Below, one piece after another: positions 2,500-56,814 of a DNA stretch of 64,000 nucleotides; the first letter of the stretch is position 1, and every line of letters begins with the position of its first letter. The notes under the pieces were generated by a model. It made no database searches, had not been told where the DNA came from, and worked only from the letters and a program-made list of their open reading frames with translations. This DNA is from Escherichia coli (GTDB lineage: Bacteria > Pseudomonadota > Gammaproteobacteria > Enterobacterales > Enterobacteriaceae): the NCBI RefSeq assembly GCF_048403405.1, contig NZ_CP183129.1. One strand, given 5' to 3'. Position numbers and translations under genes: made by a program.

Positions 2500-3564
2500 A
2501 TGAAAAACGCCACACGCTTAACTGACGATCAACGCTGGCAATCTGTCTTAGCACGCGACCCGAACGCCGACGGCGAATTCGTTTTCGCCGTGCGCACCAC
2601 GGGTATCTTTTGCCGTCCGTCTTGCCGCGCCAGACATGCCTTGCGGGAAAACGTTTCTTTCTATACGGATGCCAGCGAGGCGCTTGCCGCTGGCTTTCGC
2701 CCCTGCAAACGTTGTCAGCCAGATAAAGCCAATGCCCAGCAACATCGCCTTGATAAAATTACCCACGCCTGCCGACTGCTGGAACAGGAAACGCCTGTAA
2801 CGCTGGAAGCCTTAGCTGACCAGGTGGCGATGAGTCCGTTCCATTTGCATCGATTGTTTAAAGCGACTACCGGAATGACGCCGAAAGCCTGGCAACAGGC
2901 ATGGCGTGCTCGCCGTTTACGCGACTCGCTGGCGAAAGGGGAGAGCGTGACTACATCTATTCTTAACGCTGGATTCCCCGACAGCAGCAGTTACTACCGT
3001 AAAGCCGACGAAACGTTGGGCATGACGGCTAAACAGTTTCGTCACGGAGGTGAAAATCTGGCTGTGCGTTATGCGCTGGCTGATTGTGAACTGGGCCGTT
3101 GCCTGGTGGCTGAAAGCGAGCGGGGGATTTGCGCGATATTGCTGGGCGATGATGACGCGACATTAATCAGCGAGTTGCAGCAGATGTTTCCCGCTGCCGA
3201 CAACGCGCCTGCCGATTTGACGTTTCAACAACATGTGCGTGACGTGATCGCCAGCCTCAATCAACGCGATACGCCGCTGACGTTACCGCTGGATATTCGC
3301 GGCACTGCTTTTCAGCAACAAGTCTGGCAGGCACTGCGCACGATACCTTGCGGTGAAACCGTCAGTTATCAGCAACTGGCTAACGCCATCGGCAAACCGA
3401 AAGCGGTACGGGCCGTTGCCAGCGCCTGTGCCGCCAACAAGCTGGCTATCGTAATACCCTGTCATCGAGTGGTCCGTGGTGATGGCACACTTTCAGGTTA
3501 CCGCTGGGGCGTGTCGCGTAAAGCGCAACTGCTGCGCCGCGAAGCTGAGAATGAGGAGAGGTAA
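2500..3564 (+). CDS. ada: Bifunctional transcriptional activator / O6-methylguanine-DNA methyltransferase Ada
   Basis: 354 aa; N-terminal Cys cluster (CRPSCRARH...CKRCQPD), AraC-type HTH, C-terminal PCHRVV active-site motif. Confidence 0.95.
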   Translation: MKNATRLTDDQRWQSVLARDPNADGEFVFAVRTTGIFCRPSCRARHALRENVSFYTDASEALAAGFRPCKRCQPDKANAQQHRLDKITHACRLLEQETPVTLEALADQVAMSPFHLHRLFKATTGMTPKAWQQAWRARRLRDSLAKGESVTTSILNAGFPDSSSYYRKADETLGMTAKQFRHGGENLAVRYALADCELGRCLVAESERGICAILLGDDDATLISELQQMFPAADNAPADLTFQQHVRDVIASLNQRDTPLTLPLDIRGTAFQQQVWQALRTIPCGETVSYQQLANAIGKPKAVRAVASACAANKLAIVIPCHRVVRGDGTLSGYRWGVSRKAQLLRREAENEER

Positions 3565-49551: not shown

Positions 49552-51243
49552 ATGAAAACGCTGCTGATTATTGACGCTAATCTCGGTCAGGCACGCGCCT
49601 ATATGGCGAAGACCCTGCTGGGCGCGGCGGCGCGAAAAGCAAAACTGGAAATCATCGACAATCCGAACGACGCTGAAATGGCGATTGTTCTCGGTGATTC
49701 CATCCCGAACGACAGCGCGCTGAACGGTAAAAATGTCTGGCTGGGCGATATTTCCCGGGCAGTTGCGCACCCTGAGCTGTTCCTGAGTGAAGCCAAAGGC
49801 CATGCGAAACCTTACACTGCGCCGGTCGCTGCGACAGCACCGGTTGCCGCCAGCGGTCCGAAACGCGTAGTTGCGGTGACTGCTTGCCCGACTGGCGTAG
49901 CACACACCTTTATGGCGGCTGAAGCCATTGAAACCGAAGCGAAAAAACGTGGCTGGTGGGTGAAAGTTGAAACCCGTGGTTCGGTTGGCGCGGGTAATGC
50001 AATCACCCCTGAAGAAGTAGCCGCAGCAGATCTGGTGATTGTGGCGGCAGATATTGAAGTGGATCTGGCGAAATTTGCTGGTAAACCGATGTATCGCACC
50101 TCTACCGGTCTGGCGCTGAAGAAAACCGCGCAGGAACTGGATAAAGCGGTTGCTGAAGCAACGCCGTATGAACCGGCGGGCAAAACTCAAACAGCGACCA
50201 CTGAAGGTAAGAAAGAGAGTGCAGGCGCTTACCGTCACTTGCTGACGGGCGTCTCTTACATGCTGCCGATGGTCGTTGCAGGTGGTCTGTGTATCGCGCT
50301 TTCTTTTGCTTTTGGTATCGAAGCGTTTAAAGAGCCGGGTACGTTGGCTGCGGCGCTGATGCAGATTGGTGGTGGTTCAGCCTTTGCGTTGATGGTGCCG
50401 GTACTGGCAGGTTATATTGCCTTTTCCATTGCCGATCGTCCGGGTCTCACGCCGGGTCTGATTGGCGGTATGCTGGCGGTCAGCACCGGTTCTGGCTTCA
50501 TTGGCGGTATTATTGCGGGCTTCCTGGCTGGTTACATTGCGAAGTTAATCAGTACGCAATTGAAACTGCCACAGAGTATGGAGGCGCTGAAACCGATTCT
50601 GATCATTCCGCTAATTTCCAGTCTGGTGGTCGGTCTGGCGATGATCTACCTGATCGGTAAACCGGTTGCTGGCATTCTCGAAGGGTTGACTCACTGGCTG
50701 CAGACCATGGGGACTGCGAATGCGGTTCTGCTGGGGGCGATCCTCGGTGGCATGATGTGTACTGACATGGGCGGTCCGGTAAACAAAGCAGCGTACGCGT
50801 TCGGTGTGGGTCTGCTGAGTACTCAAACCTATGGCCCGATGGCGGCGATTATGGCGGCAGGTATGGTGCCACCGCTGGCAATGGGCCTGGCAACAATGGT
50901 GGCGCGTCGTAAATTCGACAAAGCGCAGCAGGAAGGTGGCAAAGCCGCTCTGGTATTGGGACTGTGCTTCATTTCGGAAGGTGCAATTCCGTTTGCTGCC
51001 CGTGATCCGATGCGAGTGCTGCCGTGCTGTATCGTGGGTGGGGCGCTGACTGGCGCAATCTCAATGGCGATTGGTGCGAAACTGATGGCACCGCACGGTG
51101 GTCTGTTTGTTCTGCTGATCCCTGGCGCGATTACGCCGGTATTGGGTTACCTGGTAGCCATTATTGCCGGTACGCTGGTGGCGGGTCTGGCCTATGCCTT
51201 CCTGAAACGTCCGGAAGTGGACGCAGTAGCGAAAGCAGCGTAA
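49552..51243 (+). CDS. fruA: Fructose PTS EIIB'BC component
   Basis: 563 aa; duplicated IIB domains plus IIC membrane domain. Confidence 0.95.
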   Translation: MKTLLIIDANLGQARAYMAKTLLGAAARKAKLEIIDNPNDAEMAIVLGDSIPNDSALNGKNVWLGDISRAVAHPELFLSEAKGHAKPYTAPVAATAPVAASGPKRVVAVTACPTGVAHTFMAAEAIETEAKKRGWWVKVETRGSVGAGNAITPEEVAAADLVIVAADIEVDLAKFAGKPMYRTSTGLALKKTAQELDKAVAEATPYEPAGKTQTATTEGKKESAGAYRHLLTGVSYMLPMVVAGGLCIALSFAFGIEAFKEPGTLAAALMQIGGGSAFALMVPVLAGYIAFSIADRPGLTPGLIGGMLAVSTGSGFIGGIIAGFLAGYIAKLISTQLKLPQSMEALKPILIIPLISSLVVGLAMIYLIGKPVAGILEGLTHWLQTMGTANAVLLGAILGGMMCTDMGGPVNKAAYAFGVGLLSTQTYGPMAAIMAAGMVPPLAMGLATMVARRKFDKAQQEGGKAALVLGLCFISEGAIPFAARDPMRVLPCCIVGGALTGAISMAIGAKLMAPHGGLFVLLIPGAITPVLGYLVAIIAGTLVAGLAYAFLKRPEVDAVAKAA

Positions 51244-51253
51244 TAAAAGGTGT

Positions 51254-51284
51254 GTTACAGGGCAGAAATTTCCTGCCCTGTAAC
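51254..51284 (+). terminator. Hairpin immediately downstream of fruA
   Basis: 12-bp perfect stem gttacagggcag/ctgccctgtaac with a 7-nt loop, followed by a moderately U-rich tract. Confidence 0.55.
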
Positions 51285-51398
51285 ATTTGATGCGCGCAAA
51301 GAGAATGACCGGTTTGTGAATGTAATTTTATGAATTTAAATGGTTTTATCTTTTAGTGGAAACCTGAAACTTTCATCAAACACTAAGGTTATTTCCTC

Positions 51399-51427
51399 AA
51401 GGGCAGATTAATTTCTGCCCTTTTTTA
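51399..51427 (+). terminator. Second rho-independent terminator about 150 bp downstream of fruA
   Basis: aagggcagattaatttctgccctttttt, a 9-bp stem plus T6. Confidence 0.65.
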
Positions 51428-51666
51428 GTGTTCCTGTTCTGTGCATCCCGTCACAAATTCCCCCTTTTTATAATTCAGGTATTTAATCGCGTTTTGTGAG
51501 CCTGCTCAAATCTGCCCATTTTGCCTCTCTGGCGGTAATTTACTTTACGTAAAACATGCATACTATGAGCACATGTTTAAATATGAACACATGTTTAAAC
51601 CGTCTTTGCAGTATCAATATTCTTGTGGATTGACAGGGTTGGTAATTTTTTACCAGAGGACGTGCT

Positions 51667-52608
51667 ATGCGCGAAAAGGATTATGTCGTAATTATAGGTT
51701 CGGCGAATATTGATGTCGCCGGATATTCACATGAATCATTAAATTATGCGGATTCAAATCCAGGTAAAATAAAATTTACGCCTGGTGGAGTAGGGCGCAA
51801 TATTGCACAAAACCTGGCGTTGCTGGGGAATAAAGCCTGGCTACTGAGCGCAGTAGGCAGTGATTTTTATGGTCAATCGTTGCTAACGCAAACCAATCAA
51901 TCTGGTGTTTATGTCGATAAATGCCTGATTGTGCCGGGAGAAAATACGTCGAGCTATTTATCATTACTCGATAATACCGGTGAAATGCTGGTTGCTATAA
52001 ATGACATGAATATTAGCAACGCTATTACAGCTGAATATCTCGCACAGCACGGTGAATTTATTCAGAGGGCAAAGGTCATTGTCGCGGACTGTAATATCAG
52101 TGAAGAGGCACTGGCATGGATTCTGGATAATGCCGCCAACGTACCCGTATTTGTCGATCCTGTTTCCGCGTGGAAATGTGTCAAAGTGCGCGACCGTCTA
52201 AATCAAATCCACACTCTCAAGCCAAACCGCCTTGAAGCGGAAACCCTGAGTGGGATTGCTTTGTCAGGGCGTGAAGATGTGGCAAAAGTTGCTGCCTGGT
52301 TCCATCAACATGGCCTGAACCGACTGGTATTGAGCATGGGCGGCGACGGCGTTTATTACAGTGATATCAGCGGTGAAAGTGGTTGGTCTGTGCCGATCAA
52401 AACCAATGTCATTAATGTTACCGGAGCGGGCGATGCCATGATGGCTGGACTTGCTTCGTGTTGGGTAGACGGAATGCCGTTTGCCGAATCTGTTCGTTTC
52501 GCACAGGGATGTTCGTCAATGGCGCTCTCCTGTGAATACACCAATAACCCCGATTTATCGATTGCCAACGTTATATCGTTAGTGGAGAACGCAGAATGTC
52601 TGAATTAA
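51667..52608 (+). CDS. psuK: Pseudouridine kinase PsuK (YeiC)
   Basis: 313 aa, PfkB family (GAGDAMMAG). Confidence 0.9.
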   Translation: MREKDYVVIIGSANIDVAGYSHESLNYADSNPGKIKFTPGGVGRNIAQNLALLGNKAWLLSAVGSDFYGQSLLTQTNQSGVYVDKCLIVPGENTSSYLSLLDNTGEMLVAINDMNISNAITAEYLAQHGEFIQRAKVIVADCNISEEALAWILDNAANVPVFVDPVSAWKCVKVRDRLNQIHTLKPNRLEAETLSGIALSGREDVAKVAAWFHQHGLNRLVLSMGGDGVYYSDISGESGWSVPIKTNVINVTGAGDAMMAGLASCWVDGMPFAESVRFAQGCSSMALSCEYTNNPDLSIANVISLVENAECLN

Positions 52609-53534
52609 AAATTTCCCCTGAATTATTACAAATTTCCCCGGAAGTGCAGGACGCTTTAAAAAACAAAAAACCGGTTGTGGCGCTGGAATCGACCATTATT
52701 TCTCACGGGATGCCGTTCCCACAAAATGCCCAGACCGCAATTGAAGTTGAAGAAACTATTCGTAAACAGGGCGCTGTACCTGCCACTATCGCCATTATTG
52801 GCGGCGTGATGAAAGTGGGTTTAAGCAAAGAAGAAATTGAATTGCTGGGTCGTGAAGGGCATAACGTGACCAAAGTTAGTCGTCGCGATTTACCTTTTGT
52901 TGTTGCCGCCGGAAAAAATGGCGCAACTACCGTTGCTTCAACGATGATTATTGCGGCGCTTGCCGGAATTAAAGTATTTGCCACCGGGGGAATTGGTGGT
53001 GTGCATCGCGGGGCGGAACATACCTTCGATATTTCTGCCGATTTGCAAGAACTGGCAAATACTAATGTCACCGTTGTTTGTGCCGGTGCAAAATCTATTC
53101 TCGATTTAGGATTAACAACAGAATATTTAGAAACCTTCGGTGTGCCGTTAATTGGCTATCAGACAAAAGCGCTGCCTGCGTTTTTCTGCCGTACCAGCCC
53201 ATTTGAAGTTAGTATTCGCCTTGATAGTCCCACGGAAATCGCTCGTGCAATGGCGGTGAAATGGCAAAGCGGTCTGAACGGTGGCCTGGTGGTGGCAAAT
53301 CCGATCCCGGAACAGTTTGCGATGCCGGAACACACTATCAATGCGGCGATCGATCAGGCGGTAGCTGAAGCTGAAGAGCAGGGCGTTATTGGTAAAGAAA
53401 GCACACCGTTCCTGCTGGCTCGTGTTGCTGAACTGACTGGCGGTGACAGCCTGAAATCCAACATCCAGCTGGTGTTCAACAACGCCATTCTGGCGAGCGA
53501 AATTGCCAAAGAATATCAGCGTCTCGCGGGTTAA
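52596..53534 (+). CDS. psuG: Pseudouridine-5'-phosphate glycosidase PsuG (YeiN)
   Basis: 312 aa; start overlaps psuK. Confidence 0.9.
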   Translation: MSELKISPELLQISPEVQDALKNKKPVVALESTIISHGMPFPQNAQTAIEVEETIRKQGAVPATIAIIGGVMKVGLSKEEIELLGREGHNVTKVSRRDLPFVVAAGKNGATTVASTMIIAALAGIKVFATGGIGGVHRGAEHTFDISADLQELANTNVTVVCAGAKSILDLGLTTEYLETFGVPLIGYQTKALPAFFCRTSPFEVSIRLDSPTEIARAMAVKWQSGLNGGLVVANPIPEQFAMPEHTINAAIDQAVAEAEEQGVIGKESTPFLLARVAELTGGDSLKSNIQLVFNNAILASEIAKEYQRLAG

Positions 53535-53627
53535 TTTCTGACGGGCAGAAAGCCGTCGCCCGTACTCATCAAGCATACCAAAACCTGGCGCTGACGCCGG
53601 GTTTACTGGCATGAAGGGAAAATCATT

Positions 53628-54878
53628 ATGGATATAATGAGAAGTGTTGTGGGGATGGTGGTGTTACTGGCAATAGCATTTCTGTTGTCAGTGAATAAAA
53701 AGGGCATCAGTTTGCGCACGGTTGGAGCCGCACTGCTGCTGCAAATCGCTATTGGTGGCATCATGCTCTACTTCCCACCGGGAAAATGGGCAGTAGAACA
53801 GGCGGCATTAGGCGTTCATAAAGTGATGTCTTACAGTGATGCCGGTAGCGCCTTTATTTTTGGTTCATTGGTCGGGCCGAAAATGGATGTCCTGTTTGAT
53901 GGCGCGGGCTTTATCTTCGCCTTTCGCGTACTCCCGGCGATTATCTTCGTCACTGCGCTCATCAGCCTGCTGTACTACATTGGCGTGATGGGACTGCTGA
54001 TTCGCATTCTTGGCAGCATTTTCCAGAAAGCTCTCAACATCAGCAAAATCGAATCTTTTGTTGCGGTTACCACTATTTTCCTCGGGCAAAATGAGATCCC
54101 GGCGATCGTTAAACCGTTTATCGATCGCATGAATCGCAACGAGTTGTTTACCGCAATTTGTAGCGGGATGGCGTCCATTGCTGGTTCGATGATGATTGGT
54201 TATGCCGGAATGGGCGTACCAATTGACTACCTGTTAGCGGCATCGCTGATGGCGATCCCTGGCGGGATTTTGTTTGCACGTATTCTTAGCCCGGCAACCG
54301 AGCCTTCGCAGGTCACATTTGAAAATCTGTCGTTCAGCGAAACACCGCCAAAAAGCTTTATCGAAGCAGCGGCGAGCGGTGCGATGACCGGGTTGAAAAT
54401 CGCCGCTGGTGTGGCGACGGTGGTAATGGCGTTTGTCGCAATTATTGCGCTGATTAATGGCATTATCGGCGGAATTGGCGGCTGGTTTGGTTTTACCAAT
54501 GCTTCTCTGGAAAGTATTTTTGGCTATGTGCTGGCACCGCTGGCGTGGATCATGGGTGTGGACTGGAGTGATGCCAATCTTGCGGGTAGCCTGATTGGGC
54601 AGAAACTGGCGATTAACGAATTCGTCGCTTACCTGAGTTTCTCCCCATACCTGCAAACGGGCGGCACGCTGGAAGTGAAAACCATTGCGATTATCTCCTT
54701 TGCGCTTTGTGGTTTTGCTAACTTTGGTTCTATCGGTGTTGTCGTTGGCGCATTTTCGGCTATTTCGCCTAAACGCGCACCGGAAATCGCCCAGCTTGGT
54801 TTACGGGCGCTGGCAGCAGCAACGCTTTCCAACCTGATGAGCGCGACCATTGCCGGGTTCTTTATTGGTTTAGCTTGA
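53628..54878 (+). CDS. psuT: Nucleoside transporter PsuT (YeiM), CNT family
   Basis: 416 aa; near-identical paralog of nupX (56815-58065). Confidence 0.9.
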   Translation: MDIMRSVVGMVVLLAIAFLLSVNKKGISLRTVGAALLLQIAIGGIMLYFPPGKWAVEQAALGVHKVMSYSDAGSAFIFGSLVGPKMDVLFDGAGFIFAFRVLPAIIFVTALISLLYYIGVMGLLIRILGSIFQKALNISKIESFVAVTTIFLGQNEIPAIVKPFIDRMNRNELFTAICSGMASIAGSMMIGYAGMGVPIDYLLAASLMAIPGGILFARILSPATEPSQVTFENLSFSETPPKSFIEAAASGAMTGLKIAAGVATVVMAFVAIIALINGIIGGIGGWFGFTNASLESIFGYVLAPLAWIMGVDWSDANLAGSLIGQKLAINEFVAYLSFSPYLQTGGTLEVKTIAIISFALCGFANFGSIGVVVGAFSAISPKRAPEIAQLGLRALAAATLSNLMSATIAGFFIGLA

Positions 54879-54884
54879 GTTTCA

Positions 54885-54935
54885 TTGCCGGATGTACGCG
54901 CTTATTTAGCGTCACATCCGGCAATCGCTCTATTG
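54885..54935. repeat. REP-like palindrome / bidirectional terminator between psuT and yeiL
   Basis: ttgccggatgt ... acatccggcaa inverted repeat. Confidence 0.5.
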
Positions 54936-54945
54936 CAAATAATTT

Positions 54946-55605
54946 TTACTGCATCATCCCTGAGAATTTATTTTCCGGGTCCATCTCCAGTGCCAGTCCT
55001 GACAACTGCTTTCTGTTTTTAATTAGATACCCTTTCTTGCTTTTAATTAATAAACCGTCGTGAATGAATTGCGCTAGAACATATAAAAGATGTCGATAAG
55101 AAACGCCTAAATACTCTGCCGCTTGCGTATGCTTTTCGTGATAAAGATCACCTTCCTGCGAGAGTAATATAAAAGCTGCCAGGCGATTCACTAACGGAAA
55201 TGATTGATTCTGAGTTAAAGAAACAATATTGCGATAATTTTTATGGCTTAAGGTGACGCAGAGTTTTCGTAAAAATAGCGTGTCGTTTAATAACAGCGGA
55301 CGGTAATGTTTCATAGGGAGCGCAAGGCACCAACACTCTTCAATAGCCTGTACCGCACGCGGTTCATGGTCTTTGTCGATTAACTCAATCTCGCCAATAA
55401 AACAGGGAGCGGCAAAGAAATCGATCAGCGACACGCGACCATTAGCTAGCGTGGCGTAAAGCCTGGCGCGGCCTCGCGTCAGGTAAAACAGCCAGGACGG
55501 CTGTTGCCCTTCCTGCACAATGTAGTCACGCGCTAAAAAATGAAACAGCCGCGTATCGGCTGAAACATCCGTTGAAAAGCAATCCTTAAACGCGGATTCA
55601 CTCAT
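54946..55605 (-). CDS. yeiL: Crp/Fnr-family transcriptional regulator YeiL
   Basis: 219 aa from the internal ATG ([10 protein letters not shown]...); cNMP-binding-like domain plus C-terminal HTH. Confidence 0.85.
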
Positions 55606-55773
55606 CAATTGCTGCTTAAGGTCATTATTGTGGATTTCTTTCACGATGTTTATCCGCTATGAGATTTCTCATATTTAGCATACTTACGCTGTTGTTAAGA
55701 TTCAATCATCGGCCCGGTCGAATTTTCTTTGCTGTAGAAAAAATAACGCAACTGGAAACAGAGGAAATAAACA

Positions 55774-56715
55774 ATGGAAAAGAGAAAAATTATTCTGGAT
55801 TGTGATCCGGGTCATGATGATGCTATTGCCATAATGATGGCAGCGAAACATCCGGCAATAGATTTATTAGGCATCACCATTGTGGCGGGTAATCAGACGC
55901 TTGATAAAACATTAATTAATGGCCTGAATGTTTGCCAGAAACTGGAGATTAATGTTCCGGTTTATGCGGGGATGCCACAGCCCATTATGCGTCAACAAAT
56001 CGTTGCCGATAATATTCACGGTGAAACCGGACTGGATGGCCCGGTATTCGAGCCGCTGACCCGCCAGGCAGAAAGCACTCATGCGGTGAAATATATCATC
56101 GATACCCTGATGGCAAGCGATGGCGATATCACTCTGGTGCCGGTTGGTCCGCTTTCAAATATCGCGGTGGCAATGCGCATGCAGCCCGCAATCCTGCCGA
56201 AAATCCGTGAAATTGTGCTGATGGGCGGCGCTTACGGTACTGGCAACTTTACGCCATCCGCCGAGTTCAACATCTTTGCTGACCCGGAAGCCGCACGCGT
56301 GGTGTTCACCTCCGGCGTTCCGTTGGTGATGATGGGCCTCGATCTCACCAACCAGACCGTTTGCACCCCGGACGTGATTGCCCGGATGGAAAGGGCAGGC
56401 GGCCCTGCCGGAGAGCTGTTCAGCGACATCATGAACTTCACTCTCAAAACCCAGTTCGAAAACTATGGCCTGGCTGGCGGCCCGGTGCACGACGCCACCT
56501 GCATCGGTTATCTGATCAACCCTGATGGCATTAAAACCCAGGATATGTACGTCGAAGTGGATGTTAACAGTGGCCCTTGCTATGGGCGTACCGTCTGCGA
56601 CGAGCTGGGCGTTCTTGGCAAGCCAGCCAATACCAAAGTCGGCATCACTATTGATACCGACTGGTTCTGGGGCTTAGTCGAAGAGTGCGTGCGCGGCTAC
56701 ATCAAAACCCATTAA
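55774..56715 (+). CDS. rihB: Pyrimidine-specific ribonucleoside hydrolase RihB (YeiK)
   Basis: 313 aa; N-terminal DCDPGHDDA nucleoside hydrolase motif. Confidence 0.9.
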
Positions 56716-56728
56716 GTGTTGATAACAA

Positions 56729-56762
56729 GCCGGGCCGGTATCGCAAGATGCAGGCCCGGCTA
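56729..56762 (+). terminator. Hairpin downstream of rihB
   Basis: gccgggccggtatcgcaagatgcaggcccggc followed by TATTT. Confidence 0.55.
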
Positions 56763-56814
56763 TTTCTGATGGGCAGAAAGCCGTCGCCCAAAATGACATG
56801 AAGAGATAATAACT

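Follow-up and report, generated by a model that had tools for sequence, protein, structure and literature searches.

The region between fruA and psuK was analysed in a window of 64,000 nt of the Escherichia coli chromosome. The segment that follows the fruA stop codon is probably the 3' UTR of fruBKA, reshaped long ago by an insertion. It contains two hairpins on the plus strand, hairpin 1 (51253-51285) and hairpin 2 (51399-51427), and a spacer between them (51286-51398). The locus is best explained, in an ordinary way, by a terminator that has been conserved, its decaying duplicate, and filler specific to the lineage that the insertion left behind. The original prediction had offered two readings of the segment, a fruA 3' UTR that yields a small RNA or a pair of tandem terminators. 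It was partly supported: the tandem-terminator side came nearer, while no positive support was found for the small RNA in Rfam, the promoter scan, annotation, sequence divergence or the replacement of the spacer by BIME-1 in other strains.

Genomic Setting

The window carries fruBKA and the psuK neighbourhood of the E. coli chromosome. The gene order after fruB-fruK-fruA is a 423-bp intergenic region, then psuK-psuG-psuT, yeiL, rihB, and nupX. The fruA coding sequence (PTS fructose IIBC) is located at 49552-51243 (+), based on the ORF list and the RefSeq annotation of identical or near-identical genomes, and psuK at 51667-52608 (+). The TAA stop codon of fruA is at 51241-51243 and the next codon is a second in-frame TAA. 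No annotated feature and no ncRNA is present between psuK and fruA in the MG1655 RefSeq record.

A psuK promoter was predicted at 51539-51566 (+), with TTTACT (51539-51544) as the likely -35 hexamer and TACTAT (51561-51566) as the likely -10 hexamer. This segment marks the end of the 3' UTR region and the start of downstream regulation. A T-to-G change at 51541 turns TTTACT into TTGACT, 16 nt upstream of TACTAT. This position is approximately 115 nt past hairpin 2 and outside the two-hairpin segment. We take it to be the gut-adaptive site 2257444; the base identity was checked and the numbering shift to the current MG1655 record is assumed. An A-to-C change at 2257444, listed as "psuK/fruA intergenic", arises repeatedly when E. 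coli evolves in the mouse gut, and has been described as a psuK promoter mutation (PMC7518454, PMC9509342, PMC6731689).

The fruBKA Terminator

Hairpin 2 has a stem of AAGGGCAGA/TCTGCCCTT (51399-51407 and 51414-51422), the loop TTAATT and a T-run at 51421-51426. The stem is GC-rich, with nine pairs of which five are G-C, the loop is 6 nt and the predicted folding energy is -15.5 kcal/mol. The stem passes directly into T6. The second, canonical terminator that had been predicted at 51399-51427 is the same as the terminator scan call, which was the only canonical plus-strand call in the fruA-psuK intergenic region.

The 3' ends of fruA were compared in 80 Enterobacteriaceae species. Most had a canonical hairpin and T-run 12-22 nt past the fruA stop codon. 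In 27 of the 80 the hairpin was (A)GGGCAGAG-ATTT-CTCTGCCC-T(n), regardless of the downstream gene; these included Citrobacter, Klebsiella, Enterobacter soli, E. asburiae, a Buttiauxella, and others. The orthologue of hairpin 2 and its T-run occupies a conserved end-of-unit position after fruA in many genera. The Kosakonia terminator has a fully compensated GGCCGG/CCGGCC stem. Hairpin 2 keeps the ancestral-type 5' flank ATTTCCTCAA, as in C. sedlakii, and the 5' flank ATTTCCTCAAGGGCAGA is common to C. sedlakii and E. coli. A profile was built from the 27 terminators, all from outside Escherichia, and searched against both strands of the 64-kb window. At E values below 1 it matched two sites only, hairpin 2 at 6e-4 and hairpin 1 at 0.03.

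Adjacent fruA and psuK genes were found outside Escherichia in C. amalonaticus, C. sedlakii, E. soli, E. asburiae, Kosakonia, and K. michiganensis. The intergenic region in these was 282-324 nt compared to 410-455 nt in Escherichia. The Escherichia surplus lies between the stop codon and the terminator, measures 140-175 bp and is exactly hairpin 1 plus the spacer. The orthology identifies hairpin 2 as the conserved ancestral fruBKA terminator, predicted to be intrinsic. No fruA entry was found in the Term-seq supplementary tables looked at, plausibly due to repression of fru without fructose.

Hairpin 1

Hairpin 1 starts 10 nt past the fruA stop codon. It has a 5' arm of TGTTACAGGGCAG (51253-51265), a loop of AAATTTC (51266-51272) and a 3' arm of CTGCCCTGTAACA (51273-51285), giving 13 Watson-Crick pairs and a possible G.U pair at 51252/51286. 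The perfect 12-bp hairpin with a weak U-tract originally placed at 51254-51284 is real and is a subset of this 13-bp stem, which is followed by UUUG. The folding energy was -24 kcal/mol (z -7.5). The stem is made up of a core, GGGCAG/CTGCCC, and an outer extension, TGTTACA/TGTAACA. The GC-rich stem-loop of 13-14 bp is of the kind found in intrinsic terminators. A U-tract is lacking: the bases after the stem read UUUGAUG in the window; in most E. coli they read UUGGAUG, and in the second haplotype, hapB, GACAAAC. Hairpin 1 was not called by the terminator scan on the plus strand. The scan called a minus-strand terminator at hairpin 1, where there is no convergent gene and the T-run is not kept in hapB.

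The core region of hairpin 1 was identical at 20 of 22 positions to the terminator consensus of other genera, AGGGCAGAGATTTCTCTGCCCT, with one substitution and one deleted base. Hairpin 1 of E. albertii (GGGGCAGAGATATCTCTTCCCC) matched the 27-terminator profile at E 9e-6. Hairpin 1 was absent from all of the non-Escherichia fruA-psuK loci. In lineage L006 the 5' flank between the stop codon and hairpin 1 is AACGTCAAT, which is the same in C. portucalensis and is of the ancestral type. The GGGCAG/CTGCCC core was invariant in 11 sequences of the window haplotype (hapA), including three Escherichia clades, and the outer stem was polymorphic. Most E. coli genomes have an uncompensated T.T mismatch in the outer stem and then UUGG. 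Hairpin 1 was more stable than the true terminator in both haplotypes (-24 and -24.9 compared to approximately -15 kcal/mol), and the extra stability comes from outer stem extensions that are unrelated in the two haplotypes. On its fold, its 20/22 identity and its profile match, hairpin 1 is identified as an Escherichia-specific paralogous copy of the fruA terminator hairpin that lacks a U-tract.

The missing U-tract, the outer mismatch with UUGG and the reach of the terminating ribosome suggest that termination at hairpin 1 would be poor and that the polymerase normally stops at hairpin 2. Published observations on another terminator include near-complete repression by the ribosome when it lies a few bp past the stop codon of a gene, with efficiency growing with distance (PMC4824070).

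The Spacer

The spacer on the plus strand measured 113 nt (51286-51398), close to the 115 bp or so in the original prediction. Its GC content is 33% compared to 52% in the window. It is single copy, being found at one place per genome in 4,230 of 5,426 E. coli genomes, and most copies are 90-95% identical to the window. The spacer is absent in other Enterobacteriaceae genera. Divergence was calculated for the 11 hapA sequences, which represent E. coli phylogroups and three other Escherichia lineages. The mean pairwise divergence of the spacer was 0.145, compared to 0.114 and 0.105 at the third codon positions of fruA and psuK, respectively, so the conservation expected of a small RNA gene was not seen. 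The corresponding values were 0.118 for hairpin 1 and 0.041 for hairpin 2 with its T-run. The most conserved non-coding stretch was the psuK promoter segment at 51538-51666, which had a divergence of 0.028 and is kept across genera.

Some signs of structure were found within the spacer. An inverted pair, TTTGATG(A) and (T)CATCAAA, is conserved: TTTGATGA, just 3' of hairpin 1, and TCATCAAA, approximately 20 nt before hairpin 2, are complementary. Folded alone, the spacer did no better than shuffles in the window (z -0.36) but did so in L006 (z -3.6). A long-range helix was predicted by RNAalifold; its three compensatory pairs all came from lineage L006, in a structure derived from the same sequences. 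In the controls, shuffled sequences reached the observed value in 4-6 of 500 cases and a slide of +1 gave as many double changes. Together with the high stability of hairpin 1 in both haplotypes, these hints of selection are weak evidence, which favours a structured 3' end of a generic kind, possibly slowing exonucleases, over a specific RNA gene.

A number of other identities were considered for the spacer and were either rejected or left without support. No plasmid or phage origin was found by search. A small protein was rejected: the plus-strand ORFs begin at different places in different strains, range from 23 to 52 aa and continue past the terminator; they are short, without a Shine-Dalgarno sequence and not conserved between strains. 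A 48-aa minus-strand ORF is annotated in a few strains and truncated elsewhere. For a decayed BIME-1, the spacer can be overlaid by eye on the BIME of hapB, but global and local alignments compared to shuffles gave only z 0.5-1.8. The best nhmmer score with a profile of independent BIME-1 copies was -3.7 bits, where shuffles reached +1.2. A position-restricted search for BIME-1 end motifs was not significant in four of five sequences, the fifth giving a corrected p of 0.03. BIME-1 and REP elements are multicopy, and the spacer occupies one place per genome compared to at least 40 for the unit found in hapB. A duplicated fruA 3' end was also considered. The 10-mer CCTGAAACGT is common to fruA and the spacer in the E. 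coli consensus alone (z 2.8), the other clades not sharing it. No similarity was found to the sequence downstream of hairpin 2, of which the spacer might have been a relic. The strict IHF consensus was not found in the spacer, although this pattern also misses the BIME in hapB.

By its distribution and divergence the spacer is lineage-restricted and evolves at a neutral rate. The best explanation is that it would have no sequence-specific function, which forms part of a reading considered probable as a whole.

Haplotype B and BIME-1

The second haplotype, hapB, was found in approximately 1,194 of the 5,426 complete E. coli genomes (approximately 22%). It diverges sharply from the window from approximately 27 bp before the fruA stop codon through psuK. 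Directly after the stop codon is a hairpin, ATCATC-GGGGATGAGACATCTCTGCCCC-GATGAT, with a folding energy of -24.9 kcal/mol, and the conserved terminator is GGGCAGAAACATCTCTGCCC followed by T5. A complete 148-nt BIME-1 is present between the two hairpins in place of the spacer. Near-full-length copies of this unit, which occurs at 40 or more places per genome, include those at artJ-rlmC, tkt, entD-fepA, and rhlE-ybiA. E. albertii has a haplotype of the hapB type, also with BIME-1. Within each haplotype hairpins 1 and 2 are alike, even in the loop. BIME-1, also known as RIB or RIP, is composed of REP y, a long L linker and REP z1, the two REPs being inverted; it occurs as single copies and has an IHF site in L (PMC3333891).

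The layout around BIME-1 was then compared at other sites. At artJ the stop codon is followed by AAGCCGC-AACC-GCGGCTT, GAGAC, BIME-1 and AGCCGC-ACAT-GCGGCTT-TTTT. Three artJ alleles were seen: an empty allele in CFT073 with a single hairpin, the filled allele, and a secondarily trimmed allele in which the BIME is present and the left hairpin is lost. The tkt locus carries the hairpin-GAGAC-BIME unit in repeated form. Nine distinct sites, or ten when tkt is added, were obtained when metagenomes were scanned with the left end of BIME-1. A local hairpin was present on both sides at five of the ten. A hairpin copy without a T-tract, BIME-1 and a hairpin copy with a T-tract occur in this order at artJ, tkt, and two of the metagenome-derived sites. 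Among the other sites, two had a hairpin on the left only, without a T-run, one had none and one was ambiguous.

These sites show that the two-hairpin architecture seen at fruA occurs around BIME-1 copies elsewhere. The shared layout and the single hairpin of the empty artJ allele suggest that the arrangement is an insertion footprint. It is best read as a recurrent one, in which insertion next to a terminator would leave a hairpin without a U-tract, the insert and a hairpin with a U-tract. The footprint in the window haplotype may be linked to the BIME-1 pattern by analogy.

Proposed History of the Locus

The ancestor would have had one intrinsic terminator, GGGCAGAG...CTCTGCCC and a U-run, within approximately 15 nt of the fruA stop codon. 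In the Escherichia lineage 140-175 bp would then have lodged between the stop codon and the terminator, leaving a hairpin on both sides of the insert. The insertion event itself probably created the duplication of the hairpin. The downstream copy, hairpin 2, would have kept the U-tract and the junction with the psuK upstream region, and RNA polymerase would terminate here. The upstream copy, hairpin 1, would have lost the U-tract, and at approximately 10 nt past the stop codon its folding would be hindered by a terminating ribosome. It probably terminates little and may at most serve as a second barrier to 3' exonucleases on the mRNA. The transcript is thus expected to end at hairpin 2, with weak activity at hairpin 1.

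A more general mechanism is offered tentatively and is at present doubtful. BIME-1-type elements may integrate just 3' of a terminator hairpin and duplicate the whole 17-22 bp hairpin on the far side, in the manner of a target-site duplication that is palindromic and unusually long. The window would then represent an old event of this type, the insert having since been replaced or having decayed beyond recognition. No description of a duplicated hairpin as a footprint of BIME-1 integration was found in the literature searched, which is weak evidence of novelty.

Recurrence of GGGCAGA

The original prediction noted GGGCAGA in both stems and in the psuT and nupX leaders. All four copies were located, at 51260, 51401, 53543 (psuT leader), and 56771 (nupX leader). 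The motif is also present at 51414 on the minus strand, which is the other arm of hairpin 2, and further copies are at 51511(-) and 54597. The window contains 17 copies compared to 6.9 ± 3.0 in dinucleotide shuffles. GGGCAGA is not an outlier as it ranks third among 105 7-mers of the same composition (GCGGGAA 19, GGGCGAA 17). Three of the 17 are redundant: one lies in the other arm of hairpin 2, one in hairpin 1, itself a copy of hairpin 2, and one in the nupX leader, which is paralogous to that of psuT. The hairpins themselves are far beyond chance and the GGGCAGA count is unremarkable.

The recurrence had been taken as a possible small repeated element. This holds for hairpins 1 and 2 insofar as one hairpin was copied from the other, which accounts for their common GGGCAGA. 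It does not extend to the psuT and nupX leaders, which share the motif because the transporter genes are paralogous and have a conserved leader hairpin. The leaders have a 27-nt block in common, TTTCTGAYGGGCAGAAAGCCGTCGCCC. Their hairpin is small, is formed by pairing of GGGCAG with GUCGCCC and has no U-run after it. The leader hairpin is kept in Citrobacter, Salmonella arizonae, and Buttiauxella, and one of its pairs has undergone a compensatory change from C-G to U-A. Its conservation with psuT/nupX-type transporter genes in other genera marks it as an element of another kind, passed on through gene duplication. The terminator profile from 27 species gave no match in the psuT or nupX leaders.

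It is hardly credible that GGGCAGA(A/T) marks a dispersed repeat of small size, or a regulatory site that the fruA, psuK, psuT, and nupX transcripts have in common and that links them. The excess over the shuffled expectation, the six copies within 51260-56771 and the position of all four cited sites in hairpin 5' arms would fit such an element. However, the rank among 7-mers is ordinary, the profile matches hairpins 1 and 2 and not the leaders, the leader hairpin is a separate element and the 51511(-) copy is not kept across genera. The flanks of the motif fall into two unrelated groups and not into those of a dispersed repeat. The sequence comparisons indicate two separate duplications and not a repeat family.

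Alternative Interpretations

A stable trans-acting small RNA could in principle be made from 51286-51427, or 51244-51427, by processing or from an internal promoter, and end at hairpin 2. Small RNAs derived from 3' UTRs that share the terminator of the mRNA, such as CpxQ and SroC, are a well-established class. The segment has a canonical terminator at its end and some structural conservation in the spacer, and the 189 nt taken together have a favourable fold (MFE -63 kcal/mol, z -6.4). However, this z-score is due to the two hairpins, the spacer alone being at -0.36 in the window. Apart from one irrelevant weak hit, no Rfam family was matched between 46000 and 58000 at E values up to 1. No sigma-70-like site was found on the plus strand between the hairpins, nothing is annotated as ncRNA in MG1655 and a literature text search for a fruA 3' UTR or small RNA found nothing relevant. 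The spacer has no conserved single-stranded seed, diverges at or above the synonymous rate, is missing in other genera and is replaced by BIME-1 in approximately 22% of E. coli genomes. The U-tail is short, with six U of which two are paired in the stem. The small-RNA reading is unsupported and would be very unlikely. With a spacer that is limited to Escherichia and evolves at a neutral rate, the segment is taken to be an ordinary remodelled 3' UTR rather than a hidden small RNA gene.

It is also possible, but unlikely, that both hairpins are kept by selection as tandem terminators which insulate the psuK promoter from read-through of a strongly inducible fru operon and stabilise the 3' end of fruBKA. 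Two hairpins are present in both haplotypes, with hairpin 1 very stable in each and its core invariant in the 11 hapA sequences, three Escherichia clades among them, and psuK has its own conserved promoter approximately 115 nt further on. Against this, hairpin 1 has no U-tract (UUUG in the window, UUGG in most strains and none in hapB), carries uncompensated outer-stem mismatches in most E. coli genomes and is within reach of a ribosome at the stop codon. One terminator suffices in other genera, and the left hairpin at artJ is deleted in some strains at no obvious cost. The suggestion of tandem terminators was the nearer of the two readings first proposed, but the hairpins are not equivalent, hairpin 1 being a copy of hairpin 2 without its U-tract. 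A remodelled 3' end with one working terminator is the preferred reading.

Implications

The analysis removes a candidate small RNA from the locus and correctly assigns the fruBKA terminator. The region between fruA and psuK is a hot spot of structural change, with two deep haplotypes, BIME-1, and an IS1 insertion, and it adjoins a promoter that is repeatedly hit by adaptation in the mouse gut. The recurrence of terminator hairpins in duplicate around BIME-1 is a concrete and checkable clue to the site choice of abundant repeats, and illustrates how 3' UTRs of bacteria grow longer. If general, the pattern would explain the presence of BIME-1-type repeats at operon 3' ends and would provide a testable rule of target choice.

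Comparison With Known Systems

The spacer resembles the source of CpxQ/SroC-type small RNAs in its location between a stop codon and an operon terminator, and the fruA segment could be released as a terminator-bearing fragment. It differs from them in having no conserved seed, sequence constraint, annotation or Rfam family, and in its presence/absence polymorphism within the species. REP and other stem-loop stabilisers of mRNA 3' ends are represented in the literature by examples such as the malE-malF REP (cited in PMC3184786). Hairpin 1 is likewise very stable (-24 kcal/mol) and just past a stop codon, and without terminator activity it could block 3'-5' exonucleases. Unlike these stabilisers it is not a REP sequence, and its stabilising role is putative.

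The 148-nt BIME-1 unit sits between the hairpins in hapB and E. albertii, and the hairpin-insert-hairpin layout of the fruA locus is seen again at other BIME-1 sites. The spacer of the window differs in being single copy, and comparison of sequence, profile and end motifs gave no statistically detectable resemblance to BIME-1. As in tandem terminators at operon ends, two hairpins are found in series at the end of fruBKA. The difference lies in hairpin 1, which lacks the U-tract and reproduces the sequence of hairpin 2 instead of being an independent terminator; the pair apparently arose when the hairpin was duplicated around an insert. All the sequence features of an intrinsic terminator are present in hairpin 2: a GC-rich stem of 9 bp, a 6-nt loop, T6, and a conserved position.

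Haplotypes and rearrangements of the fruA-psuK region

Two deeply divergent haplotypes were found in E. coli for the 3' end of fruA, the intergenic region and psuK. They accounted for approximately 78% and 22% of complete genomes, respectively. Divergence begins at about 51217 in the window and runs through psuK (compare loci L004, L005, and L010 from other genomes). The minor haplotype was 94% identical to Escherichia albertii across the compared BIME segment (160 nt). These findings suggest an ancient polymorphism or introgression.

A REP-like palindrome (GTCGGGTGGCG...CCCGAC) was present between the fruA stop codon and the terminator in several genera other than Escherichia. It was located within positions 3101-3175 of loci L020, L021, L031, L035, L037, L040, and L068, from Lelliottia, Enterobacter hormaechei, E. 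cloacae, Pseudenterobacter, and Huaxiibacter. The gap has therefore been invaded repeatedly. In strain RIVM_C037791 (L219) an IS1 lies within the T-run of hairpin 2, the fruBKA terminator, at the equivalent of 51418-51425, with an 8 bp target duplication (CCCTTTTT). The terminator and the psuK upstream region are split apart by this element. In Escherichia sp. MOD1-EC7003 (L007:3101-3300) hairpin 1, the copy next to fruA, together with the initial ~85 nt of the spacer, runs straight into apparent psuG coding sequence. No psuK match was found and the psuT leader is ~1.35 kb nearer (L007, 4038). The arrangement points to a deletion that would run from mid-spacer into psuG.

One ORF has been annotated across the spacer and terminator. 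WP_001300063.1, a hypothetical protein of 48 amino acids predicted by PGAP in a few strains, is encoded on the minus strand (L002:1137-1283, window ~51336-51482). It is probably spurious, as elsewhere, the window included, the ORF either shrinks to 24 amino acids or is missing.

Putative psuK promoter and transporter leaders

Position 51541, within the putative psuK promoter (51539-51566), is presumably K-12 position 2257444 (old numbering), by a coordinate shift that we infer. The A-to-C mutation that maps there is T-to-G on the psuK strand, where TTTACT becomes TTGACT; TACTAT lies 16 nt downstream. Given this shift and the putative hexamer assignment, the change would improve the -35 box. 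This 'psuK/fruA intergenic' mutation is recurrent and adaptive in the mouse gut (PMC7518454, PMC9509342, PMC6731689). Immediately downstream of the putative -10 box are direct repeats GAGCACATGTTTAAA (51567-51581) and GAACACATGTTTAAA (51585-51599), 18 bp apart, each containing an ACATGT palindrome. Both are kept across Escherichia, Citrobacter, Enterobacter, and Klebsiella, and the pair looks like a putative tandem operator for some regulator.

A conserved 27 nt block, TTTCTGAYGGGCAGAAAGCCGTCGCCC, is located upstream of the paralogous nucleoside transporter genes psuT (53535-53561) and nupX (56763-56789). It forms a small hairpin (GGGCAG/GUCGCCC). In Citrobacter, Salmonella arizonae, and Buttiauxella the block likewise precedes genes of the psuT/nupX type, and one pair of the hairpin shows a compensatory change. 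The block, which matched no Rfam family, may be an RNA element regulating in cis or a site for a protein.

Terminator hairpins at other BIME-1 sites

At other E. coli loci the local terminator hairpin was often found in two copies, one on either side of the BIME-1 repeat unit (L091:140-400, L092, L096, L097, L101, and L139; comparison site, L004:5445-5660). The right copy carries the T-run while the left copy has none. This duplication was seen in at least five of the 10 sites sampled. Three alleles were found at artJ-rlmC: an empty site with one hairpin, a filled site with two, and a filled site with the left hairpin deleted.
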